From positions 1 through 24,229 of the forward strand of contig JAZKSW010000005.1 in NCBI GenBank assembly GCA_036625875.1: DNA of 24,229 nucleotides, given 5' to 3'. Position 1 is the stretch's first letter, and each line of letters begins with the position of its first letter. The DNA comes from Minisyncoccota bacterium (GTDB lineage Bacteria > Patescibacteriota > Minisyncoccia > Minisyncoccales > JAZKSW01). Of the stretch, positions 4,539-22,198 are shown one piece after another. The notes below the pieces were generated by a model, which saw only the letters and a program-made list of their open reading frames with translations, ran no database searches and was not told where the DNA came from. The position numbers were made by a program, and so were the translations under genes.

Positions 4539-4685
4539 ATTAATATTAATTTATTTAAATAATTAAATGTTAATACTACTATTAGGGTAGTGGATTGTGT
4601 TAATAACTTTTTAAGACCTTGAAAAAATAACGAAAGAACTGGAAAGAGATTGTTAAAAAATATTGGAAAAAATGTGGCCGTAATG

Positions 4686-6026
4686 TTAGTTGTTTTGAAT
4701 CTTCTGATTGATAAGGTCAATCTCCTCAGATAATCCATCTTCTTTACCCAACTTTTCTTCAATTTTTTCACAGGCATAAATTACCGTTGTGTGATCCCTA
4801 CCTCCAAATCTGTCTCCAATAGAAGGATAAGAATTGTCCAATTTTTCCCTTAACAAATACATTGCTACTTGTCTTGGCTTCACTACTTCTCTCTTACGTG
4901 AAGAAGAGGATAATTTTTCTTCATCTATTCCATAAAAATCAGCTACGGTTTCAACGATTTGTTCCGGATTAATTGGTTTTTTAGAAGAATAGGTGAAGTT
5001 TTTAAGAAGGGATTTAGCAACTTCTAAGTCAGGCGTTTCATTGTTAAGTTTTTTATATGCTACTAATTTATTCAAAGCTCCTTCTAACTCTCTGATGTTG
5101 TCTTTCACATTGGAAGCAATATAATCCAAGATCTTATCCGGGATTGTAATTTCCCCCTCCTTCATTTTTAGTTCCAGAATAGCCATCCTGGTTTCATAAT
5201 CAGGTAAGCTAATATCCGTAATCATACCGCCCTCAAAACGAGACCTAAGACGGTCTTTTAATGAAGAAATTGCTTTGGGGGGACGGTCCGAGGATAAAAC
5301 TATTTGGTTATCCTTTTCGTAAAGGACGTTGAAAATATGAAAGAACTCCTCTTGTGTTTTTTCTTTTCCTGATAAAAATTGAATATCATCAATTATTAAG
5401 GTATCGACATCCTTGAAGTTAGATTTAAACTCTTGGATCTTTTGGTTTTTGATTGAAGATACTACACCGGACGTGAATTTTTCTGCAGAAATGTATTTTA
5501 TTTTCTTATCTTCAAAATCTTCTCCGACTCTGTTTCCTATTGCTTGTAATAAATGGGTTTTTCCCAAACCAACTCCTCCGTAAATGAAAAGGGGATTATA
5601 AACGGAACCTGGTTCTTTTGCTACTGCCCACGCGCCCGCATGCGATAATTCATTAAAAGAACCCACCACAAAATTTTCAAAAGTATAGCGAGGATTTAAG
5701 TTGGTTTCTTTATCTAAATCAAAATCATCAAACTTCAATTGTTCTTCTTTAACGCTAGGGTTAGAGGCTTGACTTGTTTCTGAAGAATCTACCTTGTAGT
5801 CTACATCTTTAATATCAGGATCAAGATTGTGTAGTATTTTTAATATCTTTTTATGATATTTGTTTTCTAGCCACTCCTTAGTAAAATTATTAGGTACAGA
5901 TACCGTTAATTGGTCATCTTCTCTAGAAGATATTTTCGTTTTCTTGAACCAAGTAGCAAAGTTAGCTGGAGAAGTATTAAACTGGATTTGGGCTAACACT
6001 GCTTCCCACAATTCCTCTTTATTCAT
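4686..6026 (-). CDS. dnaA: Chromosomal replication initiator DnaA
   Basis: 446 aa. N-terminus MNKEELWEAVLAQIQFNTSPANFATWFKK (DnaA domain I). AAA+ Walker A NPLFIYGGVGLGKTHLLQAIGN. Walker B LIIDDIQFLSGKEKTQEEFFHIFN. C-terminal DNA-binding helix-turn-helix VAMYLLRE...S...IGDRFGGRDHTTVIYACEKI. Confidence 0.95.
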   Translation of the reverse strand: MNKEELWEAVLAQIQFNTSPANFATWFKKTKISSREDDQLTVSVPNNFTKEWLENKYHKKILKILHNLDPDIKDVDYKVDSSETSQASNPSVKEEQLKFDDFDLDKETNLNPRYTFENFVVGSFNELSHAGAWAVAKEPGSVYNPLFIYGGVGLGKTHLLQAIGNRVGEDFEDKKIKYISAEKFTSGVVSSIKNQKIQEFKSNFKDVDTLIIDDIQFLSGKEKTQEEFFHIFNVLYEKDNQIVLSSDRPPKAISSLKDRLRSRFEGGMITDISLPDYETRMAILELKMKEGEITIPDKILDYIASNVKDNIRELEGALNKLVAYKKLNNETPDLEVAKSLLKNFTYSSKKPINPEQIVETVADFYGIDEEKLSSSSRKREVVKPRQVAMYLLREKLDNSYPSIGDRFGGRDHTTVIYACEKIEEKLGKEDGLSEEIDLINQKIQNN

Positions 6027-6328
6027 GGTTATAACTAAATAGGAGGTTAAAGTTTATAAAAGAATACAGAACTTTGTTTCTTTTGTTTCTACTTTAATTT
6101 TAACACATCCTGAAAAAGTTTCCACACCCCCAAACAACCTTTATTTATGTTTTTTGTGTATAACATGAGGAAAATTTGTTGATCAATTTTGGATTAATTG
6201 GTAGTTTTTAGAACATTGTAATCAGCAAAAATTTACGTTAAACTGAATAAGGTGCTTCTATTTTCTCGCTCGCTTCAGAAATATAAATAAACAATTATTT
6301 AATTTCCTTGCTCGCTCGTAATTATAAG
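6027..6328. promoter_or_regulatory. dnaA-rnpA divergent intergenic region; candidate oriC / dnaA promoter region with a few DnaA-box-like 9-mers and an AT-rich stretch
   Basis: TGTGTATAA at 6156-6164 is 8/9 to TGTGGATAA. GTTTCCACA near 6117-6125 is the reverse complement of TGTGGAAAC, 7/9. An AT-rich run spans 6130-6165. Box density is modest and I cannot compute GC skew, so this is only a candidate. Confidence 0.3.
6262..6328 (+). promoter_or_regulatory. rnpA promoter/leader module, copy A of a duplicated ~55-nt leader element
   Basis: TTCTCGCTCGCTTCAG-AAATATAAATAAACAATTATTTA-AATTTCCTTGCTCGCTCG-TAATTATAAG-ATG. The 23-nt core at 6278-6300 is identical to 15100-15122 on the opposite strand. 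It contains a -10-like TATAAAT at 6281-6287. Confidence 0.45.
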
Positions 6329-8181: not shown

Positions 8182-9657
8182 TTAATTTGATTGCCGAAGA
8201 GGAATAATTCCTATACTTCCTATTTCATCATCTTCGGGATAGGTTATGACATTGTGACCTGTTAAATTCGGGTCGCTATTTTTAATTACTTTGCATTGTT
8301 CTTCAAAGGTGAAGGGGTCTATAAAGCTAGTTCCGCCGAACTTATCTTTACCCAACACTACCATAAAACTGCCTTGTATTTCTATAGATAGTATTCTATC
8401 TACAGCCTTATCTTCATCGGGATCATCGGGATCATCATGCACCTTTACGCCTAAATCACCACTTTTAATTGGGTAGTCAATTTCTTCACTCCAGAAGCGT
8501 CTGTCATGCTTATCTTCTATTGTGCTGGCATCTATTGTGAAAAAATCCCCTTCGTGACCTATTTCTTCGTAAAAAGTGACTTTCCCTTTTTTTATTTTTG
8601 ATAACCTAAGTGCAAACGGTGTGATAGATTCTGCTTCTTTGGCACCGAAATCGGACTGACTTGTTAAATCAACTGTTCGGTTTGTGCAAAAGGACATAGT
8701 ACTTCTTCCTCCACCTATACCAGGCGGGCTTCCAGCTGTTGGATCCTGGGGCATAACTCCTTTTACTGTACACTTACCTTTGTAATCGGTTTTGCCATGA
8801 AGTACTGCTCCGTAAGCAATTTCAGGAACCAGAAGGCCATCTTTGTTTTTACATTTCCCGGCACTCTTAAAAACTATTCCCCCAACCTCATTCTTATAAC
8901 CTCCCAAATCATCTTCTTTGCTAAGATAGTGTTGGTAAGGCTCTCCTGGAAAGGCAGCCATAGTACATTTATCAAAAGGATCTGAAGAGTCGTAACCCGA
9001 TTTGGGAGGATTTTTATAAAGATACACCCCCGGTTTGTTATCTTCCAGATAAAATGATTTTAATCCGCTAACACTCTCTTTCTTACCATCTTCTTCCGGA
9101 TCAGTTTTATAGTTACCTTTATAACTACAGCTTCCCTCGTATTTCTTGGAATCAAACCAAAAAGCTCCTTCAATTGCGTCTCTGATGCTCTGAAATTGCA
9201 ACTCCTCTGCCTCAAACCCTTCGGGCAGAGCCTCTTGGCTGTCACTAAAACAACATCTTGTAGAAGAACCGTTTTCGTTCTCTCCGTACAAGCAAATTCC
9301 CTGACTGGGAGTTCCGGGATCCATAGTATTTCTTAACAGTTGTGGATTGATTGTTTGTAGAAGTAAATACGACCCCAGTAAGATAACAATTGCTATTACG
9401 GCTCCCGTTATGTAGCTTTTGGCATCATCAATTCTGCTTCGATTACCTCCTGAAATTAAATACATGAAACCTCCGAACACCAAAGCGCCGAAGACTAATA
9501 AACCTCCGAGCCATAAGGACCACGTGAAAATCTTAGCGATAAGAGAAGATAAGCCACTGCCTCTTCCCAGGATCACACAATTTGCCCCTGTAACTATTGA
9601 AGGGGTAATTAAGGTGATAGTTACCAAGAAGACAATTGTTTTTTTAGTTATTCTCAT
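8182..9657 (-). CDS. Secreted/membrane protein: an N-terminal VirB2/TrbC-like (Patescibacteria 'T4SS pilin'-type) domain fused to a ~380-aa extracellular domain with scattered Cys
   Basis: 491 aa. Signal peptide MRITKKTIVFLVTITLITPSIVTGANC. Two TM segments flank GGFMYLISGGNRSRIDDAKSYITGAVIAIVILLGSYLLLQTINPQL, the GG.Y..SGG.....AK....TINPQL pilin-type pattern, and the upstream ORF shares it. The stop lies 4 nt from the jag stop, with the two genes convergent. Confidence 0.6.
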   Translation of the reverse strand: MRITKKTIVFLVTITLITPSIVTGANCVILGRGSGLSSLIAKIFTWSLWLGGLLVFGALVFGGFMYLISGGNRSRIDDAKSYITGAVIAIVILLGSYLLLQTINPQLLRNTMDPGTPSQGICLYGENENGSSTRCCFSDSQEALPEGFEAEELQFQSIRDAIEGAFWFDSKKYEGSCSYKGNYKTDPEEDGKKESVSGLKSFYLEDNKPGVYLYKNPPKSGYDSSDPFDKCTMAAFPGEPYQHYLSKEDDLGGYKNEVGGIVFKSAGKCKNKDGLLVPEIAYGAVLHGKTDYKGKCTVKGVMPQDPTAGSPPGIGGGRSTMSFCTNRTVDLTSQSDFGAKEAESITPFALRLSKIKKGKVTFYEEIGHEGDFFTIDASTIEDKHDRRFWSEEIDYPIKSGDLGVKVHDDPDDPDEDKAVDRILSIEIQGSFMVVLGKDKFGGTSFIDPFTFEEQCKVIKNSDPNLTGHNVITYPEDDEIGSIGIIPLRQSN

Positions 9658-9662
9658 AGATA

Positions 9663-12257
9663 TTATTCACGAATTAATTCTACACAGAAGAAATTATTCA
9701 TGCCTCCGTTTCTCCCTAAATTCTTAATAGCGTTTTGGCATTTATCACTTTGTTTGTTTGTTAAGCAGGCTTCTTTTTGCTCGTTGGTTAAATCCTTGTG
9801 GCTATAAGGATAACAACTGTTTTGCACATTGGGTAAACTTGGCAAGGAAAACTCGGGAGGATAACAATTATTGTAGTTGGTGATGGGGAAATTAGGTTGA
9901 ATGTCCAGTTGCCCTAATTTTAACAAATCAAGGCCCAAACTACAACTGAGTATACCTTGAAGGTTCATATTTTTTTCAGCCACTCCCCCAAAACCTGTTA
10001 AGCATCCTTTCATTTTATCTCTGCTTTGAGATAGCATAGTTATTAATTCGTGACGGTCAGGATCATCTTTTTTGAGGTCTTTTACTTTTATCAAATCAAC
10101 AATACGATTGAAAGAATTTTTAATTGTTTCTTCAGCTTCTACTACTGTATTTGTCTGATCCTTAATTGCATCCATTAAACAAGGGTTTTCAATTTTGCAT
10201 TTACACTCACAAATATCCGGTCCTGGGTCACAACAGTAGCAATTTTCTCCATCGCTGTCACAACACATCTCACAACATGCACCTTGCCCAACTACATCAC
10301 AATAAGCTTCAGAGTGGTAAGCTCCCCAGTAATCATCCGGATTATTCTGACATCTACAACTTAATGGGAGTACGTAAAGCACAGAAAGATCTCCTTGAGG
10401 CTCATCCTCTAAGTCTCCTGCCGGATCTTCTGGATTGAATAAAGCATTAGTAGCCTTTTCTATTCTATTATTAATATCTTTTAATTTGTTTAAATTTATT
10501 TGGGCGAGTTTTTCTGCATCGTCCGTAGCATCTCCAATGGGGATTAAGCCTCGCGGGTATCTGCTGTCCGGTTCGGGATCTAAAGTGGCTTTTCCCAGCA
10601 AGGGGGCGATAGAACTAGGCACTTTTTCCGAATTAGGATCCGGACAGTAAAAGGTAGCCGGGTCACCGTCTTTTTTCTCACAGGTCTGTTCCGGTTTATC
10701 ACCTTCTTTTTCGTCCTCTATTTTGCATAAAGTACAAGTGGCATCGGTAGTAGTACAAGATGAACTACCGGTTTCATTATTTAATAAATACTCTGAAGGT
10801 TTGCAGGTTTTTATTTCTCTTTTCCCTACGGTTGACGTAGCACAATCTCCCTTTTCAAGTGTATCTAAATCACAATCATAGCAAGGTAGTTTACCTTCAT
10901 CGGTAGTAGTGCAATTTTTAGCATTAAATTCTTTACAGTATTTAGTAGTTTCCACTTTGTTTTCTTCAGAACAGCTGTTTCCCCAAGAAGTTCCGCTTTC
11001 ACAGAAATCTTTTTTCTGCCATTCAGCGGGTCTTTCTTTTTTAGAGAAATAATAATTTGCCTGAGAAATTACAGTTTGGTAAGGACAATCATTTTTAAGA
11101 AAATTTTCTGCTCTTCTAAGATAAGTTAAGTCTTTTTCTAAGTCCTTTTCCAGAGGCTTTAAAAAGTTAACCATTAAAAAACGAACTTGGTCCGCTACCA
11201 ACAGTGGTTCTCCTTCACCGGAGTGATCGTCCGGGTTAATTACAGCTCTTTCGTTAAACTGTTTGGTAGTTAAGTCCTTAAGTTTATCATCGGTGTAATT
11301 CCGCCTAATTTTCTTTCTGTATTCGTCAATTTTATCTCTAAAACCATCACAAGGGTCTCCGTCTTCATAAGGGTCTCCTATGCAACTTTCCAGAGGTTCA
11401 CAGGTGCCCTGCTTGCATGATTTACTATCACAGGTTCCGTCTATGCACTCTCCTTCCACGTTGCAGTATTCAGTAGAACAATCACTTGTTAAATTTTTGA
11501 TTTTTTCAGCCCACTCTCTTAATTTTTCCATTTTCTTGTTCACGGGTTCTTCGAATTTGGTCAGGCAGTCCATTCGGTCATGTTCGGTCATGGGGTCAAT
11601 TTGTTCCGTGTCGGGATTAGCGTCTTTAAAAACAAGTAGTTCATCTTCTTCTATAAAATCATAACAATACCCTTGACGGGCGTCTTTTTGATTGACTAAA
11701 GTATCTACCTCCTTACCATCTTGACAGTCCACCATCGTCTCGTACTTCTCTCCTTTCCGGTAGCAATCTATTTCTTTCGCTAATATTTTTTCGGTTAGAG
11801 TTCCAATGGGAATTTCTTGAAAAGTAGTTGTGGCTTTTACAGTAGAAGGAGGATCGGGTTTAATTGGTGGAGTGGTAGTGGGGCTATCCACGTCAAAAGG
11901 AGTTTCTACTAGTTGGGGGTTAATAGTGGTTAATATTAAGACAGAAGTCAGTAGTAACAGAAGGCCTAAGAAAGCATGACGGGCCGTGTTTTTTGCATTT
12001 TGAATTCTCGTAGCGTTACCTCCCGAAGTTAAATACAAAATTCCTCCATAGATTAAGACTCCGGTTACTATTATAACACCTACGAACAATCCCAAACTAA
12101 AAAGGTAAGTTAAGAGTCCCGTAATACCGGCTCCCGGTTCAGGCTCCTTTACACCCGGAAGGTTGGGATAGTCTACAGCTTGCGCTAAATTAAAAAACCC
12201 TAACCCCAAAGAGATTAAGGTAAGAAGTAATAAAGTTTTATATTGTTTTTTATTCAT
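9663..12257 (-). CDS. Giant cysteine-rich surface protein: an N-terminal VirB2/TrbC-like pilin domain fused to a ~750-aa disulfide-rich ectodomain. Paralog of the downstream gene
   Basis: 864 aa. Signal peptide MNKKQYKTLLLLTLISLGLGFFNLAQA. Pilin-type segment LFVGVIIVTGVLIYGGILYLTSGGNATRIQNAKNTARHAFLGLLLLLTSVLILTTINPQL. The rest is extremely Cys-rich (CxxC/CC/CxC clusters, e.g. CCEMCCDSDGENCYCCDPGPDICECKCK) with D/E/K/T-rich linkers. Confidence 0.6.
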   Translation of the reverse strand: MNKKQYKTLLLLTLISLGLGFFNLAQAVDYPNLPGVKEPEPGAGITGLLTYLFSLGLFVGVIIVTGVLIYGGILYLTSGGNATRIQNAKNTARHAFLGLLLLLTSVLILTTINPQLVETPFDVDSPTTTPPIKPDPPSTVKATTTFQEIPIGTLTEKILAKEIDCYRKGEKYETMVDCQDGKEVDTLVNQKDARQGYCYDFIEEDELLVFKDANPDTEQIDPMTEHDRMDCLTKFEEPVNKKMEKLREWAEKIKNLTSDCSTEYCNVEGECIDGTCDSKSCKQGTCEPLESCIGDPYEDGDPCDGFRDKIDEYRKKIRRNYTDDKLKDLTTKQFNERAVINPDDHSGEGEPLLVADQVRFLMVNFLKPLEKDLEKDLTYLRRAENFLKNDCPYQTVISQANYYFSKKERPAEWQKKDFCESGTSWGNSCSEENKVETTKYCKEFNAKNCTTTDEGKLPCYDCDLDTLEKGDCATSTVGKREIKTCKPSEYLLNNETGSSSCTTTDATCTLCKIEDEKEGDKPEQTCEKKDGDPATFYCPDPNSEKVPSSIAPLLGKATLDPEPDSRYPRGLIPIGDATDDAEKLAQINLNKLKDINNRIEKATNALFNPEDPAGDLEDEPQGDLSVLYVLPLSCRCQNNPDDYWGAYHSEAYCDVVGQGACCEMCCDSDGENCYCCDPGPDICECKCKIENPCLMDAIKDQTNTVVEAEETIKNSFNRIVDLIKVKDLKKDDPDRHELITMLSQSRDKMKGCLTGFGGVAEKNMNLQGILSCSLGLDLLKLGQLDIQPNFPITNYNNCYPPEFSLPSLPNVQNSCYPYSHKDLTNEQKEACLTNKQSDKCQNAIKNLGRNGGMNNFFCVELIRE

Positions 12258-12258
12258 A

Positions 12259-12564
12259 TTAATCCTGAAGTATCTCCATTATTACGAGAATGGTCCAAAA
12301 TGGTGCAATGTCACCAAGGGCGGGAATTAATTCCCCTCCGGTAAAGCCCATCAGTTTCTTAGCACTGGTTCCACCGAACCCCATACCATCTCCCCTGACA
12401 AAGTAAAGCCAGGATCCTAGAAAGACACCTCCTAACAAATCGGGAATGAAAGAAATGCCGAAGCCTATTCCTACAAAGTCTAGTACTAAACAAGCCAGAC
12501 CTATTAAGTCCAATATCGCAGCCAAAAAGAACATCATAGTGGAACCCGGGCTAGGAAAGCTCAT
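12259..12564 (-). CDS. Small glycine-rich integral membrane protein (hypothetical; possibly a divergent pilin/VirB2-like subunit)
   Basis: 101 aa with two hydrophobic helices (FFLAAILDLIGLACLVLDFVGIGFGISFI ; IAPFWTILVIMEIL) and a G-rich loop GFGGTSAKKLMGFTGG. Tightly packed between virB4 (3-nt gap) and the 864-aa gene (1-nt gap). Confidence 0.45.
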   Translation of the reverse strand: MSFPSPGSTMMFFLAAILDLIGLACLVLDFVGIGFGISFIPDLLGGVFLGSWLYFVRGDGMGFGGTSAKKLMGFTGGELIPALGDIAPFWTILVIMEILQD

Positions 12565-12567
12565 ATT

Positions 12568-14409
12568 TTAAAATTCTCCTTGTTCTAACCTACTTTGATT
12601 TTTAGAAGATTGTTGTCCTAACTCTTTTTTGGACTCTTTAATCTTCTTAACTTCTTCCGGAGAGGTGGTAATTATTTGCTCCTCGGCATAAGAAGCTACT
12701 ACTCTTAAGCCAACGTGCTTAGGCCCTGCAAAAAACAACCCTTCTCCTACCGGAGCTTCTAATAGCATTGTTTTTTCTGCTTCAGTTAAATTAAAGGCAT
12801 CTTGAACTGCTTCGGCTCCTGAAGGTGATTGTTTCATTAATAATTGGAGAGAAGAGTTGGTAATAATAGGTTTTCCATAGTCCGACTTCATGAAATCAAT
12901 CACATCTTGAGTAATAGTGGTAACTCCAAGCCAATATTTTCTGCCTCTTTTAGCTGTGCCGAATAGGAAGGAGGCTCCATCTTCGTTCTTCATCATCCAC
13001 CATGCTTCGTCTACCACTAAAATTCTTTTCTTGAGTTCAGCTCTAATAGTGTTCCAAATGTAGCGCATAATCATGAACATGGCCATCGGCCTTAATTCAT
13101 CTTCCATGTCTCTAATACCGAAGGTAACGAGATTATTATCCATTTCTACGTTGGTCGGATTATTGAAGAATTCAGAATAACTACCTTCGGTGAATTTTCT
13201 TAATCTCCTGACAAGTGATTCTGCTCCTTCCATCGTTTCCAAAACAGATTGAAAGTCTTCCATTAGAGGGGTTCTTTCGTCCCATAAAGAGGGGTCGGTT
13301 TCGGGAGTAATATCCCGAGCGCGATAAGTTTCGGTTAGAGCTTGATCTATAATTGCATCTTCCTCGGCATTAAGTCCGCCAAGCATTATTCTTAAAAGCC
13401 CTACTAAATTAATAATATTGCTTCTCAACACGTCTGACGGCCTTTCGTTTTCTCTCGGTGGAGGGAGGTCAAAAGGGTTAACATGGTTAGGGGAAGTCAA
13501 AGACATATTGTAATAAGAACCTCCTACTGCGTCCGACAGGAATTTATATTCGTTTTCGGGATCGATTATGATAACATCCGTTCCCATCATTAAGGATCTT
13601 AAAATTTCTAGCTTCTCGAAGAATGACTTTCCGGATCCGGCCTTACCGAAAACAACCGAGTTCGCGTTTTCTAAAGAAAAGCGGTCGAACAATACCAAAG
13701 AATTATTATGTTTGTTAACTCCGTAAAGAATTCCCTCATTGGAGCTTAGATCAAAGGAAATAAACGGAAAGGCACTGGATAACGGGGCAGTATTCATGGG
13801 GTTGGTTACTCCCAATTTATCAGTTCCGTAGGGAACGGAAGACAAAAAGCCCTTTTTCTGTTGAAATAAAGCTGGCTTAGGATAAATCATCCGGGATTCC
13901 AAAATAGATCTTAGCCGGGTTTCCGAACTGTTCAAATCTTCTTTGCTTTCTCCGTAAACGGTGATATAGAGTGAGAATTGAAACATCTTTTCCCTGGCGG
14001 TCTGTAATTTATCTCTCAATTCTTCCAGGTCTTGGTAGGCAGTTTCCAGTTCAGGACTTCTTACTAATCCTTTCTCTTCTCTTTCGGCAATTTCTGATTG
14101 AACCTCTGCTGTTCTTTTTCTCAACTTTTTAAGAATTTGTTCTGAATCTTCAGGATGAATAAACATTGAAACATCCATCGGGGTGTCCATGTTGATTACG
14201 GGAGACAACCAGCCCGTACTCAGATAACGGGGATAGGAAAATACGAAGAAAGATTTAACATATCTTTCTCCTAATTTAATATTATCCTCGCTGACTTTAA
14301 TCGAAGCCGGAGCGGCTATATCTTTAGCTCCAATGGGCCGAGTCTGGAAAACCTGCTCCGGTATTTTTTCTCCTCTATTGAGTAATTTGTCCAAAAAAGG
14401 AATCTTCAT
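12568..14409 (-). CDS. virB4: VirB4/TrbE-family T4SS ATPase, C-terminal ~3/4 (middle domain plus ATPase domain)
   Basis: 613 aa. Walker A VVFGKAGSGKSFFEK. Walker B RILVVDEAWWMM. The N-terminal part YVKSFFVFSYPRYLSTGWLSPVINMDTPMDVSMFIHP aligns to the VirB4 mid-region (YVGSIYSF.EYP....PGML..L.SLDFPLVLTQSFSFL in A. tumefaciens VirB4). The ATG overlaps the upstream ORF's TGA (ATGA). Confidence 0.85.
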   Translation of the reverse strand: MKIPFLDKLLNRGEKIPEQVFQTRPIGAKDIAAPASIKVSEDNIKLGERYVKSFFVFSYPRYLSTGWLSPVINMDTPMDVSMFIHPEDSEQILKKLRKRTAEVQSEIAEREEKGLVRSPELETAYQDLEELRDKLQTAREKMFQFSLYITVYGESKEDLNSSETRLRSILESRMIYPKPALFQQKKGFLSSVPYGTDKLGVTNPMNTAPLSSAFPFISFDLSSNEGILYGVNKHNNSLVLFDRFSLENANSVVFGKAGSGKSFFEKLEILRSLMMGTDVIIIDPENEYKFLSDAVGGSYYNMSLTSPNHVNPFDLPPPRENERPSDVLRSNIINLVGLLRIMLGGLNAEEDAIIDQALTETYRARDITPETDPSLWDERTPLMEDFQSVLETMEGAESLVRRLRKFTEGSYSEFFNNPTNVEMDNNLVTFGIRDMEDELRPMAMFMIMRYIWNTIRAELKKRILVVDEAWWMMKNEDGASFLFGTAKRGRKYWLGVTTITQDVIDFMKSDYGKPIITNSSLQLLMKQSPSGAEAVQDAFNLTEAEKTMLLEAPVGEGLFFAGPKHVGLRVVASYAEEQIITTSPEEVKKIKESKKELGQQSSKNQSRLEQGEF

Positions 14410-15077
14410 TGGTTAAAATTTGATTGAGTTACTCTTTGTTGTTGATTTTGTTGAGTTATCTCGGGAGGGATTTCCGGGTAATAACCTACCTCTGCTCTAC
14501 GTGGATGATGGATGCTCCAGAATAACTCTATTATTTCCGGAGTGGTGAGGGGTACGGCTTTTAAACTACACCTTCTCAACCCCAACGCTACGAATTCCAT
14601 TCTTTGCCACAGTTGCCTTTTTGCTCTTTGGAATTTTTGCTCCGTCATTTTATGTCTTTTTGGCATTTTTCCTCCCGACTTTCGTTGTGCTTCTCTCAAA
14701 GTGTAGGGTACAACTACAAAGAAATTCTTTGACATAATGGTGTTTTTTTGTACCGTTTTATCTATAAACTTACGGTAACTTTCGGTCTGTGTTTGTAGTA
14801 ATTCATTATCTTGTTCCTTTTGTAGTTGTTCTAATTTATCTAAATAACCGGTAATGTTAAGCTGTCTGGATTTAAGATAAATTTGCAGAGGAAAATCCAG
14901 AGAGTTCAGCATTTCTTGAAATTGATAGATAATCGATTTTTTCTGGTCCGAAGTCTTTAGAGCAAAATTTAAAGAATTAACCATTAAAATACCCCTTAAT
15001 GCTTTGTTTTTCAATATGACTACTCCTTCTCTGACTTGATCAAATTTTAGAAAGTCTTGAGTTGCAGCTTCAGGCAT
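14406..15077 (-). CDS. virB4: VirB4/TrbE N-terminal segment encoded as a separate, translationally coupled ORF (split virB4)
   Basis: 223 aa. VREGVVILKNKALRGILMVNSLNFALKTSDQKKSIIYQFQEMLNSLDFPLQIYLKSRQ follows the VirB4 N-terminal pattern (I.LL.DGS..I.RI.G..FEL........F..LL......V.IY.HL.R). It ends in a TGA that overlaps the ATG of the 613-aa ORF. Combined length is ~836 aa, typical for full-length VirB4. Confidence 0.6.
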   Translation of the reverse strand: MPEAATQDFLKFDQVREGVVILKNKALRGILMVNSLNFALKTSDQKKSIIYQFQEMLNSLDFPLQIYLKSRQLNITGYLDKLEQLQKEQDNELLQTQTESYRKFIDKTVQKNTIMSKNFFVVVPYTLREAQRKSGGKMPKRHKMTEQKFQRAKRQLWQRMEFVALGLRRCSLKAVPLTTPEIIELFWSIHHPRRAEVGYYPEIPPEITQQNQQQRVTQSNFNQ

Positions 15078-15145
15078 ATTTGTGAACGAGTGAGAAAATT
15101 AAATAATTGTTTATTTATATTTTTGAAACGAGGAAGCAAGCGAAC
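15078..15145 (-). promoter_or_regulatory. virB4 promoter/leader module, copy B of the duplicated ~55-nt leader element (inverted relative to copy A)
   Basis: The minus strand reads GGTTCGCTTGCTTCCTCGTTTCA-AAAATATAAATAAACAATTATTTA-ATTTTCTCACTCGTTCACAAAT-ATG. The core 15100-15122 is the exact reverse complement of 6278-6300. It sits in a 139-nt gap inside the otherwise overlapping operon, between prgI-like and virB4-N. Confidence 0.45.
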
Positions 15146-15216
15146 CAGCGGTCGCGTAGTGACTGCTACACGACAATTTTCAAGAATTCGAGCGGAGCGA
15201 GAAGTTCTTATAATTA

Positions 15217-15633
15217 TTACTTTTTACCTGTTTTAACCTTTGTTTCCATTTCTTTTAATCGACTTTTTTGAGTCATTCTTAAAGGAGATTGTTTAGTATC
15301 GGTTTGCTGTGGTTGCTTCTTTTCTCTTTTTTCAATAATTTTAGGAGTGCTTTGCTTCTTTTTCCATAAGTAAACTTTGGAAGAAAACAAGAACGAAACG
15401 GAATGGAGAATTATCTCTGGCAAAGATTTACCGCCGACAGTGATAAAAGCTAAAGCCATTGCCACTGCAAAAAGAAGAAGAGCGGAGAGCACAAAAGGGA
15501 TTAGAGAGACAGTAAAGTAAAGGACGGCGGAAATTAAACCGGCTACTCCGATATAGGTAAATTGCTTAAAGGTCATCGGGCCTATAATTTTAGGTTCTTT
15601 TTCTATAAATTTTGGGACGCGGTAACGAGCCAT
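15217..15633 (-). CDS. PrgI/TcpE-family (VirB3-like) T4SS membrane protein
   Basis: 138 aa. MARYRVPKFIEKEPKIIGPMTFKQFTYIGVAGLISAVLYFTVSLIPFVLSALLLFAVAMALAFITV matches the PrgI-family N-terminus (..VPKD...EDKIIG.LT.RQ..Y...G, followed by two TM helices). Sits upstream of virB4, as prgI precedes prgJ. Confidence 0.65.
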   Translation of the reverse strand: MARYRVPKFIEKEPKIIGPMTFKQFTYIGVAGLISAVLYFTVSLIPFVLSALLLFAVAMALAFITVGGKSLPEIILHSVSFLFSSKVYLWKKKQSTPKIIEKREKKQPQQTDTKQSPLRMTQKSRLKEMETKVKTGKK

Positions 15634-16052
15634 TACTCAATTGATTCTCTATATTTATCTTTAGATGCTTTATCTTGTTGATTGGTTTGTTCCGGCTCTT
15701 TTGCTCCTTGTGGTTTTTGAGTTGGTTTTATTTCCGTTCCGTACAAAGCTGATAAGGTATCTCGTATTGGCATGAGAATAAACCGGTTAATTTCACGATA
15801 GATACTTCTAACTTGCTTTGCACTGAGTTCCAAGTCTTCTTTCAAGGTTTGTTTAAATTCTTTAGGGGTAAGTAATCCCATCAACACCTGACCGGTATAT
15901 CTAGCTACCTCGGAGTTTTTATCTACTCCCGCTCTTTCACACGCCTGTTTAATACGTTCAGCGGTGTCAGGTGAAAAAATAGCCTCCTGAAGTTCTTCAG
16001 GTAGTTTTTCATATACATCCCATAATTCATCTTTGGAATATTTCTTAGCCAT
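15633..16052 (-). CDS. Hypothetical soluble protein, first gene of the T4SS-like operon
   Basis: 139 aa, hydrophilic, no TM (MAKKYSKDELWDVYEKLPEELQEAIFSPDTAERIKQACERAGVDK...). Its stop overlaps the prgI-like start (TAATG). I recognise no family. Confidence 0.45.
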   Translation of the reverse strand: MAKKYSKDELWDVYEKLPEELQEAIFSPDTAERIKQACERAGVDKNSEVARYTGQVLMGLLTPKEFKQTLKEDLELSAKQVRSIYREINRFILMPIRDTLSALYGTEIKPTQKPQGAKEPEQTNQQDKASKDKYRESIE

Positions 16053-16122
16053 GTTTAACTGCCTTTATTTTAACAAAAAACGTTGGGTTATAAAAGTGGA
16101 GAAGCAGGAGAAAAGGTTAAGG

Positions 16123-16151
16123 TTGACAAATTATGTATTAATTAATATAAT
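16123..16151 (+). promoter_or_regulatory. Consensus sigma70-type promoter (TTGACA-17 nt-TATAAT) driving the SPFH-domain gene
   Basis: TTGACA at 16123-16128, a 17-nt spacer, then TATAAT at 16146-16151. A second TTGACA at 16198-16203 is followed by the RBS AAGGAG at 16213-16218. Confidence 0.55.
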
Positions 16152-16226
16152 ATGGATAACAATAGAAAGTTATTCTCTATTGGATATATTCTTTGGTCTT
16201 TGACATTTATATAAGGAGTGATAAAA

Positions 16227-17801
16227 ATGTCTCCCTCTCAAGAAGAACAGTTTTTTACGTTTCTATTGGTGTTGAGTGTTATTGTTTTGTCAATTATGTG
16301 GTTATTCCAAGCACCGACTGCTTGGGAGTTACGATTTGGCTGGTGGTCAGTGCTGGCCTTGATAGTTGGAATTTCTAGTGTTTTGATACTAGCCATGAAT
16401 ACGGCTTGGAAACACCTTGCAATTGTTCTCGTAGCTGCCGGTGTATTTTTCGGGGTTTATCTTCTGCCCTTCTGGCTACAAATTTGCCTGATGATAGTAG
16501 GAGGTTCTGTAAGTTTATTCTTTTCCGTTTATTACGGATTAGCCGAAAACAACAGATGGTTTACCAAACTCGAAGAAGGACAAGCTAAATTCGTAATGAA
16601 AGCGGGTCGATACGTAAAGACTTTATTCCAATGGGAAGGACATACTTTAGATGACGAAGGAAACGTAGTGCCCCTAGGAAAATACACGAGAAACGGAAAA
16701 GTAATAGAAGAGTTCGAAGAGCTAGAAGATGATATGCCAATTGAGGCGAAATATCTTGCCGAAATGGATCGCTTTAGCTTTTCAAGGGCTAAAAAATTTA
16801 GGGAACGCATAGAAAATCAAGGTATAGACAACTTGGAAGATTTAAGGGAAGCAGCCAGTGAAGGAAGACTTGCCGAAGAAGTTAAAGGAATAGGAGAAGT
16901 AACGCAGGATGAAATTCATAGGATAATTGAGTCAAAGAGAGGTACTTATTATGAACCTTCCCTAAAGGCGGTTACTAAGCAAGGCAAAGAGGCAGATACT
17001 TCTTCTAAGGCGGACAAAGTAATTACTACCTATGACGAAGTAGCAAACCCTGCCGGTAGTGATGATATTTTCCGGCAAGACAATAGAGACTTTTATCGTG
17101 GAGGTGGACTTAGATTTTTCAGTCCCTATTACCCTCTGTATGAAGTGAATACTTACAAGTTTTCTTGGGCGGCTCTTAGTCAAGACGGAGAAGTGAAGAT
17201 ACACAAAAATGAAGAACTTGATTACATATTAGTACAACCTGATTTATATTATTTCCAAGTGACGGATGCAGAGGATGAAGATCTTTTACCTCTAGGTGCT
17301 GAAGTGACCGTGAGAATTAGAGTTGTCAATCCCAAAAAGGCAATGCTAGTTCCCGAAAATTGGCTTGAAATGGTGATTAATTTAATTCGTCCAGCAATAA
17401 GAAATTCTTTGAGCTCCGAGAAATACAAAAATCTTACTGGTCAATACGAAGATCTCAGTGAAGACATTTTCGCTACGATTGTCAGTAGTGGGTTAATAGA
17501 CCAGCTTGAGGAAGACTACGGCGTACAAGTAGAAAGACTGGACATAAAAAATCTTGATCCACCGGAAGATTTGAGAGAAGCTACTTTGAAGGAAGCTATA
17601 GCCGGCTATGAGGCAGATGCAGCAAAAACAAGAGCGAAAGGAGAGGCTGAAGCGAAGAAGATAAAGTACGAAGCGATTAAAGAATACGAGCCCATTTCAT
17701 TGACCGTAGAAGGAATAGAAGCAGCAAAAGAATCAAATCCATACGTTATCACTCAAGGTTTACCGGGACTTGTTGATGCTATGAAATCCCTTAAAAATTA
17801 A
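16227..17801 (+). CDS. Polytopic membrane protein with a C-terminal SPFH/band-7 (HflK/C/flotillin-like) domain and a helix-hairpin-helix-like motif
   Basis: I prefer the ATG at 16227 (8 nt after AAGGAG) over the track's GTG at 16218. About 4 N-terminal TM helices. The SPFH pattern GAEVTVRIRVVNPKKAML...MVINLIRPAIRNSL...DYGVQVERLDIKNLDPPEDLREATLKEAIAGYEADAAKTRAKGEAEAKKI resembles V.V..RV.DP.KA / G..V..V.I.DI.PP.E....M.....AER...A...AEGE. A possible HhH lies at IENQGIDNLEDLREAASEGRLAEEVKGIGEVTQDEIHRII. Confidence 0.68.
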   Translation: MSPSQEEQFFTFLLVLSVIVLSIMWLFQAPTAWELRFGWWSVLALIVGISSVLILAMNTAWKHLAIVLVAAGVFFGVYLLPFWLQICLMIVGGSVSLFFSVYYGLAENNRWFTKLEEGQAKFVMKAGRYVKTLFQWEGHTLDDEGNVVPLGKYTRNGKVIEEFEELEDDMPIEAKYLAEMDRFSFSRAKKFRERIENQGIDNLEDLREAASEGRLAEEVKGIGEVTQDEIHRIIESKRGTYYEPSLKAVTKQGKEADTSSKADKVITTYDEVANPAGSDDIFRQDNRDFYRGGGLRFFSPYYPLYEVNTYKFSWAALSQDGEVKIHKNEELDYILVQPDLYYFQVTDAEDEDLLPLGAEVTVRIRVVNPKKAMLVPENWLEMVINLIRPAIRNSLSSEKYKNLTGQYEDLSEDIFATIVSSGLIDQLEEDYGVQVERLDIKNLDPPEDLREATLKEAIAGYEADAAKTRAKGEAEAKKIKYEAIKEYEPISLTVEGIEAAKESNPYVITQGLPGLVDAMKSLKN

Positions 17802-17819
17802 AAAATTAGATAATCAGAT

Positions 17820-17853
17820 AGAGGGCGGAGTTCTAATCCGCCCTCTTTTTTAT
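17820..17853 (+). terminator. Rho-independent terminator for the SPFH gene
   Basis: AGAGGGCGGA-GTTCTAA-TCCGCCCTCT is a 10-bp GC-rich stem, followed by TTTTTTAT. Confidence 0.7.
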
Positions 17854-17882
17854 ATTTCTTAGCTTTTCTTGTTCTGGCTAAT

Positions 17883-20108
17883 TTAATTATTATCTGAATC
17901 ATCCTTCATTTTATTGAGGATATTTTCAATTTCAGAATTCTTTTCTTGTAAAATCTGCTTTTCTCTATCTCTTAATTTATTATTTTTCTTTAATTGTTTT
18001 GCTATGGTCTCTAATCTTTCTTGAGTAACTTCATTTTCTTGAGTGAACCTTTCAAATTCTTCGTCTGAAATATTTCGTTCCTTTGAGCTGAATTTAACGG
18101 TACCTTCTGTTGAAGAAGATACTTCTATTTTGCTTTCTTCTGTTTGCTCATCCTTTCCGGTTTGCTTTTCATAGGGAGACATATAACCCATGCCTTGAGC
18201 CGCATCATTGCTGAGGTAGTTGGCTGCACCTTTGTTGTTTTTCTCAAACCATTGTTTGTCTCTTCCTTTGCCTTTTGCTTGTTCATTATATTGTTCTACA
18301 AAGTCTCTGCCGTGTTCTTGGCCTGCTTTGCTTAACTCACGACCCGACCAATCCAAATGAACACCCTTCATAAAGTTTTCGTTTTTAAAGGCTTCTTCAT
18401 TTAAGTTTTCAATTTCATTGAGATCCAAGTCGGCAGCTACTTTAGCGGTCAATGATCCGTATTTGTCTTTTTCGGCCTGGGACATGGTCAAGCCTGTTTT
18501 TTCTTTTTGCTCGTCGGTTAATTCTTCAGCAACTTCGTCGGCAATCGTGGGGAATGAATTAACTATGTCCTCGGCTTTCTGGGGAGCAACTTTACTAGCT
18601 GTAATAGCAGCCTGTTTGATTTTGCTATTAGAAAGCCCCATTTTTTTCATAGTCTTAAGTTGTCCTTCTTCTATTCCCGCTAAGATTTGTGTCATCTCAT
18701 CCATCTTTCCTGTGGCACCGCTTTTAATTGTACTGACTTTTTCTCCGGGATCGGTTTCTTCAGCGTCATCCACTTTTCCTTCAACCCTTTCAGTAGTTGT
18801 ACTGCCCTGGCGTAAGGCCCACCTTCCTATAGTTCGTTTACTTCGAGCTAATGCACCGGAAGCTACTCTGGTAGCTGCACCGTAATCTTCATCGAATTCT
18901 TCTCCTTTTTCCTCTGCTTCCTCCTCTCGTTCAGCTATGGATCGAGAAGTCCTCATATCCTCCAAACGGTTTCTAACCCTGTCGGGTACACCGGTTGCTT
19001 CCGCTCCTTTCCAGGCTCCCTTACCGGCTGCTCCGGCTACCCATTTACCACTTGCTTTTGCCCCGTTTATAATTGCTTCACTTCCCATTGCGCTAACTTT
19101 CAAAGTAGCTAGATAACCTATAACCAAAAAGAGTAAAGGAAGGGTAAAAGTTATAATAAAAGTTATTAAACCTTCAGCTAAACTGTCTCCCATTCCCGCA
19201 TCGGTAGTCATTTCGTTGGCTTTCATCAAAACCTCTTTACCTAAAAGCAAAGTAATGGCGGCTGGGATTCCGATAATACACCAATTTACAAATTGTTCCC
19301 ACCAATCATCCCAGATTTTCTCTTTTGCTGCCGGGAAAATATAACTGAAGAAAGCAATAGGAGAAACAATAATTAGAAGCCATAATACTACGTAACGAGC
19401 CATAAACAAAAAGGCGAACATGAATAGAATTAAGGTAGCTCCCCAGCCGAACAACATCAAAAAGAATGCCTCTCCCAAAGCTCCCACCGTATCCGCATTA
19501 CTTAATTCGGACATATAAGAACCAACATATCCTTGAATGCTGTTTGCTTGGGCTCCTCCCGGTGTTTCCATTGTTTGTTCTATAGTAGTAAAACCTCCGG
19601 CTCCCGCTTCTGCTAAAAACGCTTCCGTTGCTGCGTCGGCAAAGTCAATAACTGCAGCTGCTAAAGCAGGGGTGAAGTTGATTAACAAGGCCACTATTAA
19701 TAACTTGGGTAAAGCTTTCTGCGCTTTATATTCTTCGTACTGAAGGGCGGTAGCTACTCCAATAATTATTAACCCCACGATAAAAAACATGTTAGCAAAA
19801 TTCCTGACCGGTTCCCATCCTGCTTTAATAATATCATTGTTATGAGGTTGATAGCCTATGTCTTGAGCTAAAAATCCTCCTTCCAGGACCCAATTTAACA
19901 TGGAGGTGGCAGCTTTTAACGGTAGGGTAGTCAAATGTTTCATTATCAACAAGATAAGATTTTGTCCCTTACAAACAAGATCAAAAGTACCACAGTTAGC
20001 AGCCTCGATCAGTTGGGGTAGAAAAATCAAAACTCCTCCTACTAATATTAAAATCAATAAGTGTTTTTTGGAAATGGAATTTTTAATTTTCTTCAGCACT
20101 TGAAACAT
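17883..20108 (-). CDS. VirB6/TrbL-like polytopic membrane protein with a long charged C-terminal extension (putative T4SS channel component)
   Basis: 741 aa. Signal peptide MFQVLKKIKNSISKKHLLILILVGGVLIFLPQLIEAANCG; its AANCG resembles the GANC of the 491-aa pilin-fusion protein. At least 6 TM helices with Trp-rich loops (IWDDWWEQFVNWCIIGIPAAITLLLG), then ~350 aa of E/K-rich low-complexity sequence. The architecture resembles Gram-positive VirB6-like proteins (PrgH/TcpH type). The call rests on topology, not on recognised motifs. Confidence 0.45.
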   Translation of the reverse strand: MFQVLKKIKNSISKKHLLILILVGGVLIFLPQLIEAANCGTFDLVCKGQNLILLIMKHLTTLPLKAATSMLNWVLEGGFLAQDIGYQPHNNDIIKAGWEPVRNFANMFFIVGLIIIGVATALQYEEYKAQKALPKLLIVALLINFTPALAAAVIDFADAATEAFLAEAGAGGFTTIEQTMETPGGAQANSIQGYVGSYMSELSNADTVGALGEAFFLMLFGWGATLILFMFAFLFMARYVVLWLLIIVSPIAFFSYIFPAAKEKIWDDWWEQFVNWCIIGIPAAITLLLGKEVLMKANEMTTDAGMGDSLAEGLITFIITFTLPLLFLVIGYLATLKVSAMGSEAIINGAKASGKWVAGAAGKGAWKGAEATGVPDRVRNRLEDMRTSRSIAEREEEAEEKGEEFDEDYGAATRVASGALARSKRTIGRWALRQGSTTTERVEGKVDDAEETDPGEKVSTIKSGATGKMDEMTQILAGIEEGQLKTMKKMGLSNSKIKQAAITASKVAPQKAEDIVNSFPTIADEVAEELTDEQKEKTGLTMSQAEKDKYGSLTAKVAADLDLNEIENLNEEAFKNENFMKGVHLDWSGRELSKAGQEHGRDFVEQYNEQAKGKGRDKQWFEKNNKGAANYLSNDAAQGMGYMSPYEKQTGKDEQTEESKIEVSSSTEGTVKFSSKERNISDEEFERFTQENEVTQERLETIAKQLKKNNKLRDREKQILQEKNSEIENILNKMKDDSDNN

Positions 20109-21184: not shown

Positions 21185-22198
21185 TTGAAGCGCTTGCAAA
21201 GCTTTTCTTTAATAATAAGGCCCTTGTTGGTCATAGGGGTTTTTGTTTTTGCTTTAATATTAGCCTCTTATCCTTCTCCGAAAAAGCTGCAAGCGGATAC
21301 CAGTGTTTCCAATCAAAGCTTATTTCTCAAATCTAAACGTACTAATACAGTCTCAGCTCCACTAAGAATAGTGGAGAGTTCTATTTTACAGAGTAACCGA
21401 ACTCCCGGTTTGGTGCAACCTCAAACTTTAGGATCTGTGAGTTCTAATGAGGAACGAAGTGAAATAACCAAATATACGGTGGAAAAAGGAGATACTGTTT
21501 CTTCAATAGCGGATAATTTTGATTTGAAAACTGATACTATATTATGGGCTAATGATTTAACCGTAAATAGTACTTTGCAACCCGGAGATGAATTAATAAT
21601 TTTGCCCTTAGACGGTGTTCTTTATTCCGTCCGGTCGGGTGATACGATTAGCGGTATAGCTCAGGCTTATGATACTAAGGCAAGCAAGATCGTTGATTAC
21701 AATAACCTTGAAAGCGGTGCTGACATTTATGCTGGAGACACTTTAATTCTACCAAATGCAGAAAAACCGGAAACAGTGGCTGCAGCTGAGAAAATACCTC
21801 TGGGAGATACTTCCTTCAGTTATCCTGCTCAAGGAGTAATTACTCAAACTACGAGTGGAGTGACGCATAAACCCTCCATGCATGCAGTTGATATTGCTAA
21901 TAACTGTGGGAGCCGAATAGTGGCAGTAGCGGGAGGAACAGTTAAAAGAGCGGGTTATGCGGGTATGTTAGGCAATAGAGTAACTATTAAGCATCCTAAC
22001 GGAGTGGTTACGCTTTATGCGCATCTTTCCCAGATAAATGTAGTCCCCGGTCAAGAAGTACACCGAGCTCAAATCATAGGCAGAATGGGAAGTACCGGCT
22101 TTACAATAGGAGGTCCCGGATGTCATCTTCATTATGCTACTCCTAGAGCAAGAAATCCTCTATCTAGTTATCCGTTGAAAAGTACAATTAGCTGGTAA
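21185..22198 (+). CDS. Cell-wall hydrolase: signal/anchor, two LysM domains and a C-terminal M23 (LytM) metallopeptidase
   Basis: 337 aa. LysM 1 YTVEKGDTVSSIADNFDLKTDTILWANDL. LysM 2 YSVRSGDTISGIAQAYDTKASKIVDYNNL. M23 HAVDIA...GNRVTIKHPNGVVTLYAHLSQINVVPGQEVHRAQIIGRMGSTGFTIGGPGCHLHYA (H.xD and HLH motifs). The start is a TTG and uncertain. Confidence 0.85.
   Translation: MKRLQSFSLIIRPLLVIGVFVFALILASYPSPKKLQADTSVSNQSLFLKSKRTNTVSAPLRIVESSILQSNRTPGLVQPQTLGSVSSNEERSEITKYTVEKGDTVSSIADNFDLKTDTILWANDLTVNSTLQPGDELIILPLDGVLYSVRSGDTISGIAQAYDTKASKIVDYNNLESGADIYAGDTLILPNAEKPETVAAAEKIPLGDTSFSYPAQGVITQTTSGVTHKPSMHAVDIANNCGSRIVAVAGGTVKRAGYAGMLGNRVTIKHPNGVVTLYAHLSQINVVPGQEVHRAQIIGRMGSTGFTIGGPGCHLHYATPRARNPLSSYPLKSTISW

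Follow-up and report, generated by a model that had tools for sequence, protein, structure and literature searches.

The Patescibacteria are ultra-small bacteria that depend on a host, a very large group whose members are for the most part uncultivated. Their type IV secretion systems (T4SSs) belong to a small set of machines for which essentiality in epibiotic life has been demonstrated. In a survey of 3,035 Patescibacteria genomes, Quinonero-Coronel et al. 2025 recovered VirB4 as a monophyletic clade nested in MPF_FATA, with TrsD as the commonest associated component alongside PrgI/VirB3, VirB6 and VirB2-like pilins, the latter often in arrays of divergent copies; relaxases were almost absent (near virB4 in 15 cases), coupling proteins were seldom linked to virB4, and virB4 lay near dnaA, dnaN, rnpA, ksgA and rpmH in Paceibacteria and Microgenomatia (PMC12102498). 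By transposon sequencing, Wang et al. 2023 further showed that Southlakia epibionticum requires its homologous T4SS cluster to grow as an epibiont, with the pilin array among the essential genes (PMC10633639), and a 2025 T4SS review features the Patescibacteria system and speculates on a pilus conduit (PMC12857230). Here, we analyze a T4SS locus on a 24,229-bp contig (JAZKSW010000005.1) of a Candidatus Paceibacterota metagenome-assembled genome. The window is the entire contig, and anything beyond its ends is judged from relatives only.

The locus is almost certainly a vertically inherited, chromosomal T4SS of the Patescibacteria clade, derived from MPF_FATA, whose linked relaxase and coupling protein were lost or never present. 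It is a clean and compact Paceibacteria example and not a new kind of system; this reading, including proximity to dnaA and the missing relaxase, was already published between 2023 and 2025 (PMC12102498, PMC10633639, PMC12857230). The less described part, a modest one, is the fusion of pilin domains to large ectodomains, plus two conserved small proteins termed p139 and tm101. Taken as a whole, the account developed below is probably the best explanation of the locus.

Comparison with described systems

Relative to the surveyed Patescibacteria-clade T4SSs, the locus shares VirB4 with a separate TrsD, PrgI/VirB3, VirB6, VirB2-like pilins near virB4, the lack of a relaxase or linked coupling protein, the dnaA, dnaN, rnpA and ksgA neighbourhood, and M23/LysM hydrolases. 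It differs in that the pilin domain forms the N-terminal part of a 300-2,095-aa protein with a variable, Cys-rich ectodomain, in the presence of p139, tm101 and an SPFH protein that are not named in the survey, and in the absence of rpmH (PMC12102498). The system of S. epibionticum ML1 (SEML1_0006-0019) is likened here by description. It is chromosomal, resembles Gram-positive conjugation systems, carries a VirB2-like pilin array, likewise lacks a recognisable relaxase or coupling protein in its cluster, and is the sole member with functional data (PMC10633639). In contrast to the present locus, it belongs to the class Saccharimonadia, encodes six structurally conserved but sequence-divergent pilins rather than two large fusions, and has peptidase and lysozyme genes directly downstream of virB4.

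Among Gram-positive systems, the closest correspondence is to the trs genes of the staphylococcal MPF_FATA plasmids pSK41/pGO1 (and the tra genes of pIP501), in which TrsC (VirB3-like, 135 aa), TrsD (227 aa) and TrsE (VirB4 without its N-domain) occur in an order mirrored here by PrgI (138 aa), the TrsD-like protein (223 aa) and VirB4 (613 aa), while TrsL is the TrbL/VirB6 homologue of a 741-aa protein. However, pSK41 is a conjugative plasmid with the Nes relaxase, TrsK/VirD4, a CHAP hydrolase, a topoisomerase and a single-stranded DNA-binding protein, all absent here; it has no large pilin-domain fusions, and its TrsB and TrsA are unmatched by the pilin profile and p139, respectively. The R388 Trw system (7O3V, 8RT9) differs in being a diderm, conjugative machine with a relaxase and VirD4, VirB5 and VirB7-11, an outer-membrane core and a small VirB2.

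A two-gene VirB4 and its presumed membrane anchor

The central gene of the locus encodes a 613-aa VirB4-family ATPase of the CD1110/MPF_FATA type (12568..14409, minus strand). It scores 375 bits against NF045971 (CD1110 family; cut-off 325), contains P-loop_TraG, AAA_10 and CagE_TrbE_VirB domains, and retains intact Walker A (GKAGSGKS at residue 255) and Walker B (ILVVDE at 463) motifs. Identity to the VirB4s of the 80 best-matching Patescibacteria loci is 60-72%, and plasmid VirB4s, with more than 5,000 matches, reach at most 35.8%. With identity as a proxy for phylogeny, these values strongly suggest that the protein belongs with the Patescibacteria clade. Its alignment to pSK41 TrsE (BLASTP E 3e-43) begins at residue 30 to 36, indicating that TrsE also lacks the N-domain.

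That N-terminal domain is encoded by a separate upstream gene for a 223-aa TrsD-like protein (14406..15077, minus strand), which aligns with NF045975 over positions 103-234 (E 1.1e-8) and with NF045971 over positions 2-119. In full-length VirB4 models, the N-terminal 120-230 residues are thus covered by the 223-aa protein and the remainder by the 613-aa protein. At family level, all 32 TrsD-like members examined match the VirB4 N-terminus and 23 of the 32 match the NCBIfam family NF041427 (TrsD/TraD). The TrsD assignment rests on these NCBIfam matches and not on the single-sequence hhalign comparison to pSK41 TrsD, which was collinear but weak.

The first-pass annotation, a model's reading of the sequence, had called this arrangement a split VirB4. 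Two genes, for an N-domain and an ATPase, are indeed present, but "split" here describes an inherited TrsD + VirB4 architecture of ancestral type rather than a lesion. A reading in which a frameshift or assembly error has divided VirB4 and left a dead, pseudogenised cluster draws on the fact that VirB4 is one polypeptide in most T4SSs and on the 4-nt overlap of the two open reading frames (ORFs). It is nevertheless extremely improbable: 73 of 75 relatives encode TrsD-like and VirB4 as distinct ORFs, the TrsD-like products being typically 200-235 aa long; pSK41 has TrsD and TrsE alike; and the Walker motifs are intact in full-length ORFs with coupled junctions. Because the two-gene state is kept in 73/75 relatives and shared by pSK41, we consider it inherited and not a frameshift. 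The remaining two relatives (L053:2-2443 and L075:4096-6537) encode an 813-aa TrsD-VirB4 fusion, from which it follows that both halves are able to work as one polypeptide.

Upstream of the TrsD-like gene lies the gene for a 138-aa PrgI/VirB3-like membrane protein (15217..15633, minus strand) that scores 32.3 bits against PF12666 (cut-off 27) and has one hydrophobic segment at residues 48-66 in a simple hydropathy scan. Its family gave a weak score to pSK41 TrsC in single-sequence hhalign. The PrgI-like protein is presumed to be the membrane anchor of VirB4.

Conserved gene order and lack of conjugation genes

The cluster proper runs on the minus strand in the order p139, PrgI-like, TrsD-like, VirB4, tm101, pil864 and pil491, the last two being the pilin-domain fusions. 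All of its ORFs are full length, and the ORFs listed in the first-pass annotation proved real at their coordinates. The operon had been described as running with overlapping start and stop codons. Overlaps occur at p139/prgI (1 nt) and TrsD-like/VirB4 (4 nt, ATGA), but prgI and the TrsD-like gene are 139 nt apart, and the VirB4/tm101, tm101/pil864 and pil864/pil491 junctions are gaps of 3, 1 and 5 nt. On one side, Pfam confirms the adjoining rnpA-yidD-yidC-jag housekeeping block within a longer flank of yebC, a lamin-tail-domain protein, ruvB, dnaN, dnaA, rnpA, yidD, yidC and jag (KH + R3H). On the opposite side, it identifies ksgA, a LysM-M23 peptidase and a DksA/TraR zinc-finger protein.

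To place this layout among relatives, we compared 80 related loci taken from the best genome matches to VirB4 (1.28 Mb in total), counting gene presence per locus where enough flank was available. The same order recurs across the 80 genomes: ksgA, VirB6-like, (SPFH), p139, PrgI, TrsD, VirB4, (tm101), pilins, jag, yidC, yidD, rnpA, dnaA, dnaN, with the bracketed genes detected in some of the loci. PrgI (71/71) and the TrsD-like protein (73/73) are present in every countable locus, followed by jag (54/63), dnaA (43/52), p139 (49/68, always directly upstream of prgI) and the VirB6-like gene (35/50). Median identity across the related loci is 67% for VirB4, 58% for DnaA, 56% for the TrsD-like protein, 50% for YidC and 44% for DnaN; DnaN, YidC, Jag and RnpA, at 44-50%, fall clearly below VirB4 and the TrsD-like protein. 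VirB4 is therefore under stronger constraint than DnaA. Together, the recurring synteny and a VirB4 conserved above DnaA support a vertically inherited host function, as the first-pass annotation had argued, and not a mobile element.

Searches for conjugation genes point the same way. No window ORF contains a relaxase, coupling-protein, integrase or recombinase domain, the window encodes 0 tRNAs, and no flanking direct repeats were found in it, so that domain, tRNA and repeat scans all uphold the earlier report of their absence. That report would have failed had such genes turned up just outside, and tblastn probes with pSK41 TrsK, Nes, MobV and Res, a search insensitive to divergent proteins, had no match in the window or across the 1.28 Mb of related sequence, while the TrsE (VirB4) control matched 81 of 81 sources. 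The GC content of the locus resembles that of its flanks, with no marked compositional break along the window.

A mobile origin, as an integrated conjugative element (ICE) or its decaying remnant lying near the origin by chance, would agree with the conjugation-derived nature of VirB4, TrsD, PrgI and TrbL, for which Gram-positive conjugative plasmids and ICEs are the nearest relatives to have been characterised, and a window of one contig could miss distant relaxase or coupling-protein genes. We judge it highly improbable given that relaxase, coupling protein, integrase, tRNA and flanking repeats are all missing from the window, that the jag-ksgA insertion context recurs in relatives, that VirB4 is conserved above DnaA within a locus of flank-like GC, that the pSK41 probes were negative across 1.28 Mb, and that the published survey records just 15 cases of a relaxase close to virB4 (PMC12102498). 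Between them, the conserved split, the lack of repeats and the negative conjugation probes effectively exclude both the ICE and the pseudogene-cluster readings.

The locus had also been placed next to oriC. The dnaA/dnaN gene context agrees with that placement, but DnaA boxes are not enriched in the window (8 against 6.1 expected), and a putative oriC beside the locus is suggested solely by gene context.

A VirB6/TrbL-like membrane protein

Upstream of the cluster, a minus-strand gene (17883..20108) encodes a 741-aa polytopic membrane protein with a membrane domain of ~370 aa followed by a long, charged, low-complexity C-terminal tail. Its upstream position was correctly given, although its end lies 1.83 kb from the p139 start and not 1.7 kb. 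By itself, the window protein reaches only E 0.032 against TrbL_4 in Pfam, and evidence for its identity is at the family level: 7 of 37 relatives match PF04610, database homologues carry PF04610/PF19590, the top PDB sequence for the membrane-domain profile is TrwI, the VirB6 of R388 (E 1e-5), and the same profile matches pSK41 TrsL at 79.6% probability. By domain homology, the locus thus has a VirB6/TrbL homologue near virB4.

Pilin domains fused to large ectodomains

The two distal genes of the cluster encode proteins of 864 aa (pil864; 9663..12257, minus strand) and 491 aa (pil491; 8182..9657, minus strand). Each has a signal peptide and a VirB2-type pilin hairpin (~residues 45-112 in pil864) followed by an ectodomain of 739 aa in pil864 and 381 aa in pil491. 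Hydropathy segments fall at residues 10-28, 51-69 and 94-112 of pil864 and at 7-25, 39-57 and 82-100 of pil491, giving in both a signal peptide, a first transmembrane (TM) segment, a short basic loop (SGGN-x-RI-x-x-AK) and a second TM segment ending in TINPQL. The region after TM2 is large and predicted to be extracytoplasmic in both proteins.

Against PF18895 (T4SS_pilin; cut-off 26.6 bits), pil491 scores 25.8 bits (E 1.2e-5) and pil864 20.6 bits (E 4.7e-4). The profile searches called for by the first-pass annotation placed PrgI and VirB4 above their cut-offs, with the window pilins just under and the VirB6-like protein weak, and the families then supported both. For the pilins, PF18895 is matched by 106 of 113 N-terminal domains from relatives (best E 2.9e-12), and TrbC/VirB2 (PF04956) by 9. 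The pilin-domain profile has no significant match among PDB sequences.

Only the 86-aa pilin domain is common to the two proteins (41% identity, E 5e-20); their ectodomains are unrelated and fast-evolving. Cys makes up 6.4% of the pil864 ectodomain and 2.4% of that of pil491; full-length pil864 contains 47 Cys. Relatives align to the window proteins over only ~16% of their length, and the pil864 ectodomain has 57 relatives among 1.84 billion cluster representatives. Ectodomains that are unrelated between paralogues, poorly aligned in relatives and rare in the database fit surface-exposed recognition modules. Large size is the norm in this family: the 112 complete pilin-domain ORFs of related loci range from 115 to 2,095 aa, with 105 exceeding 300 aa and 3 of classical pilin size (<200 aa). 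On predicted architecture, pil864 and pil491 are pilin-domain fusions and not classical VirB2/TrbC pilins, since they have the hairpin but not the small size. The survey's main text describes VirB2 as of "small size" and reports that no adhesins were detected (PMC12102498); our literature search found no papers describing pilin-ectodomain fusions. In a 2026 preprint, PF18895 dominates freshwater-specific structural clusters, which fits the diversity of the pilin-domain proteins.

The AlphaFold2 model of pil864 has a mean pLDDT of 59.1 and a pTM of 0.59. Its hairpin is modelled as helices at residues 45-77 and 82-112 with block-mean pLDDT of ~72-81, and its ectodomain as four long, confidently predicted helices among Cys-rich loops of low confidence. 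Within the 1.84-billion library, the C-terminal module of ~130 aa is the sole widely shared piece of this ectodomain. As a separate observation, this Cys-containing module (9663-10100) ends otherwise different proteins of 126-1,331 aa.

Gram-positive T4SSs are commonly said to be without pilins. We considered a link between the pilins of these candidate phyla radiation bacteria and the Gram-positive TrsB-type protein, but it is unsupported, as the pilin-domain profile fails to match pSK41 TrsB significantly (hhalign E 0.2). RefSeq, for its part, labels pSK41 TrsB (L081, 25115-25432) a "CagC family type IV secretion system protein", thus classing it as VirB2-like.

A putative assembly and display machine

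In the R388 structures 7O3V and 8RT9, VirB3, VirB4 and VirB6 form a membrane platform where VirB2 is extracted and assembled. The subunits kept at the present locus correspond to the inner-membrane complex and stalk base of R388, its core for pilus biogenesis. Given this match and the accompanying pilin-domain proteins, the most economical reading of the locus is an assembly and display machine for those proteins, and we tentatively propose that it builds a wall-crossing fibre or stalk presenting variable ectodomains to a host. We infer assembly, display and host contact, and set them beside the domain identities, topology predictions, synteny, conservation and absence of conjugation genes documented above.

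In the proposed mechanism, the cytoplasmic VirB4 ATPase would act with its separate TrsD-like N-domain, tethered at the membrane by PrgI/VirB3, and these three together with the polytopic VirB6-like protein would form a membrane assembly platform. Its substrates would be the proteins encoded directly downstream, which may enter through Sec by their signal peptides as two-helix VirB2-type hairpins, with the large Cys-rich C-terminal domains of the fusions facing outward. VirB4 would then pull the hairpins from the membrane, and their polymerisation, or their mounting on VirB6, would yield a short fibre or stalk through the wall, a passage that a neighbouring LysM-M23 hydrolase may aid. In this way, variable ectodomains would be presented at the surface and make contact with the host cell. 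Conduction of DNA, nucleotides or proteins is compatible with this display model, and readings that favour import or export stay live and non-exclusive.

Several points weigh against assembly and display. A pilus or fibre has not been shown experimentally or structurally in any Patescibacterium, and a 2024 perspective calls the role of the system "completely unknown" (PMC11665869). An ectodomain of 380-740 aa per subunit may sterically bar a VirB2-type helical filament, there is no short classical pilin at this locus, and the fusions could alternatively act as minor or tip components or stay anchored in the membrane. Both window pilin-domain scores lie slightly under the Pfam gathering threshold, the pil864 model is of low confidence (pLDDT 59), and Foldseek gives it no PDB fold match and no known adhesin fold. 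No VirB8-like or VirB5-like subunit was recognised at the locus. Lastly, a coupling protein could sit elsewhere in the genome, as many distal VirD4 homologues are known (PMC12102498).

Alternatively, the locus could encode an import machine, mainly a conduit through which DNA, nucleotides or other macromolecules would be drawn from the host cell to which it is attached, with the pilin-domain proteins serving for docking only. Patescibacteria lack nucleotide biosynthesis, and in S. epibionticum ComEC competence is dispensable while the T4SS is essential (PMC12102498, PMC11665869). Without a relaxase or coupling protein, there would be no export-type substrate selection, and VirB4 shows weak similarity to the CedB model (NF041017, E 8.8e-15, 54 bits), far under its cut-off of 700. 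The T4SS-derived, relaxase-free import systems ComB of H. pylori and Ced of Crenarchaeota are literature precedents for such a role, though neither has specific homology to this locus beyond VirB4. The CedB similarity is generic VirB4/HerA P-loop homology, no DNA-binding, nuclease or ComEC-like components were found at the locus, and the sequence does not indicate a direction of transport. A dedicated import machine is therefore unlikely as a replacement for assembly and display, with which it is compatible rather than exclusive.

Effector export, in which the large Cys-rich proteins would be effectors or toxins released into or onto the host bacterium, seems distinctly unlikely. The Sec signal peptide and conserved two-TM pilin hairpin point to membrane insertion and assembly, not channel translocation, toxin or enzyme domains and immunity-like genes were not detected, and a coupling protein for substrate recruitment is absent. 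Even so, Wang et al. suggest that the S. epibionticum T4SS "may instead export proteins" (PMC10633639), protein-secreting T4SSs without a coupling protein are known (Ptl and Brucella VirB; PMC12102498), and the ectodomains are hypervariable, as effectors often are.

Within the assembly and display reading, a more specific version, which we regard as doubtful, is that in Paceibacteria-type genomes the VirB2-like hairpin is no pilin in its own right but a conserved "handle" by which the VirB4/TrsD/PrgI/VirB6 core extracts large, hypervariable, disulfide-rich ectodomains and mounts them at the cell surface as pilin-adhesin fusions, with p139 and tm101 as clade-specific accessory subunits. If so, the fusions would perform the host recognition that is done elsewhere by separate adhesins (VirB5, PrgB), which would explain both the absence of adhesins from the phylum-wide survey and the dominance of PF18895 in freshwater-specific clusters. 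Should the ectodomains be host-recognition modules, they would also serve as natural host-range markers in uncultivated Patescibacteria and offer a way to test the role of the T4SS.

The conserved small proteins p139 and tm101

The first gene of the cluster encodes p139, a soluble protein of 139 aa (15633..16052, minus strand) with no predicted TM segment, translationally coupled to prgI through the 1-nt overlap. A database of 5.8 billion proteins contains 54 homologues, none of them named. Profile searches of Pfam, NCBIfam and PDB gave no credible match (the best Pfam family was hit by at most 2 of 41 members), and hhalign detected no similarity to pSK41 TrsA. The p139 homologues close with a nearly invariant D-x-Y-R-E-x-I-E after a variable, charged and probably disordered linker; this C-terminal motif could be a docking peptide for another subunit.

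The second protein, tm101, is a small membrane protein of 101 aa (12259..12564, minus strand) encoded between VirB4 and the pilin genes. Its gene was detected at this position in 13 related loci, and 12 alignment columns are invariant, including D19, G22, D42, E78, P81 and W90. Matches to DUF4112 are weak and confined to 3 of 14 family members.

The SPFH gene and a candidate wall hydrolase

Between the VirB6-like gene and p139, a plus-strand gene (16218..17801) encodes a 527-aa SPFH/Band-7 membrane protein (PF01145, E 8.5e-13). It is divergent from p139, as first annotated, and convergent with the 741-aa gene. An SPFH gene occurs in 9 of 59 relatives, in the same slot and orientation in 8 of those 9; its product is a possible scaffold and an uncertain member of the T4SS. 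In the 165-nt divergent intergenic region, a perfect sigma-70 consensus (TTGACA-17-TATAAT) at 16123-16151 on the plus strand points at the SPFH gene. Between the convergent SPFH and VirB6-like genes lies a GC-rich hairpin (17820..17846) with a 10-bp stem, 7 GC pairs and T-runs on either side, likely a bidirectional terminator.

Past ksgA, a plus-strand gene (21185..22198) encodes the secreted LysM + M23 peptidase (PF01551, E 7.5e-24; PF01476, E 1.7e-23), which is kept next to ksgA in 24 of 42 loci. VirB1 homologues with M23/LysM domains have been tied to virB4 mainly in Paceibacteria (PMC12102498), and we tentatively regard this peptidase as a candidate functional analogue of the VirB1 wall hydrolase.

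A repeated 64-nt element and other features of the window

Most of the 139-nt gap downstream of prgI is filled by a 64-nt AT-rich element (15076..15139, minus strand) that abuts the TrsD-like start codon. A second copy (6262..6325, plus strand) likewise directly adjoins the start codon of rnpA and is oriented the same way with respect to its gene. The copies are 81% identical and share a 27-nt exact core, AAATATAAATAAACAATTATTTAATTT, where 0 such matches are expected by chance. None of the 80 related loci carries the element, and Rfam gave no family for it or for any other part of the window. It is possibly a duplicated promoter or leader (TTCAGA or TTCAAA, 18 nt, TTTAAT), in which case the T4SS cluster would have an internal promoter. 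The TTG listed as the rnpA start (6308) is probably an error, and the alignment of the two copies favours an ATG at ~6329 instead. An rpmH (L34) ORF, typically a virB4 neighbour in Patescibacteria (PMC12102498), is absent from all forward frames between dnaA and rnpA (6027-6307) and from the rest of the window.

Three further ORFs lie in the flanks. An 80-aa ORF (4535-4777, minus strand) spans the dnaA stop to the dnaN start and overlaps the dnaA 3' end; it has no Pfam match and no tblastn match in related loci, and is probably not a real gene. The lamin-tail-domain protein (1474-2145, minus strand), encoded between yebC and ruvB, begins with a signal-like segment and ends in a TM anchor; it was found in only 3 related loci. 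Finally, the gene for a 489-aa protein (22712-24181, minus strand) overlaps the DksA/TraR zinc-finger gene (22329-22715, minus strand) by 4 nt. The N-terminal half of this protein is extremely rich in Glu and Lys, it has one TM segment, and its C-terminal domain has no Pfam match; the gene pair is seen again in 5 related loci, past the LysM-M23 gene.

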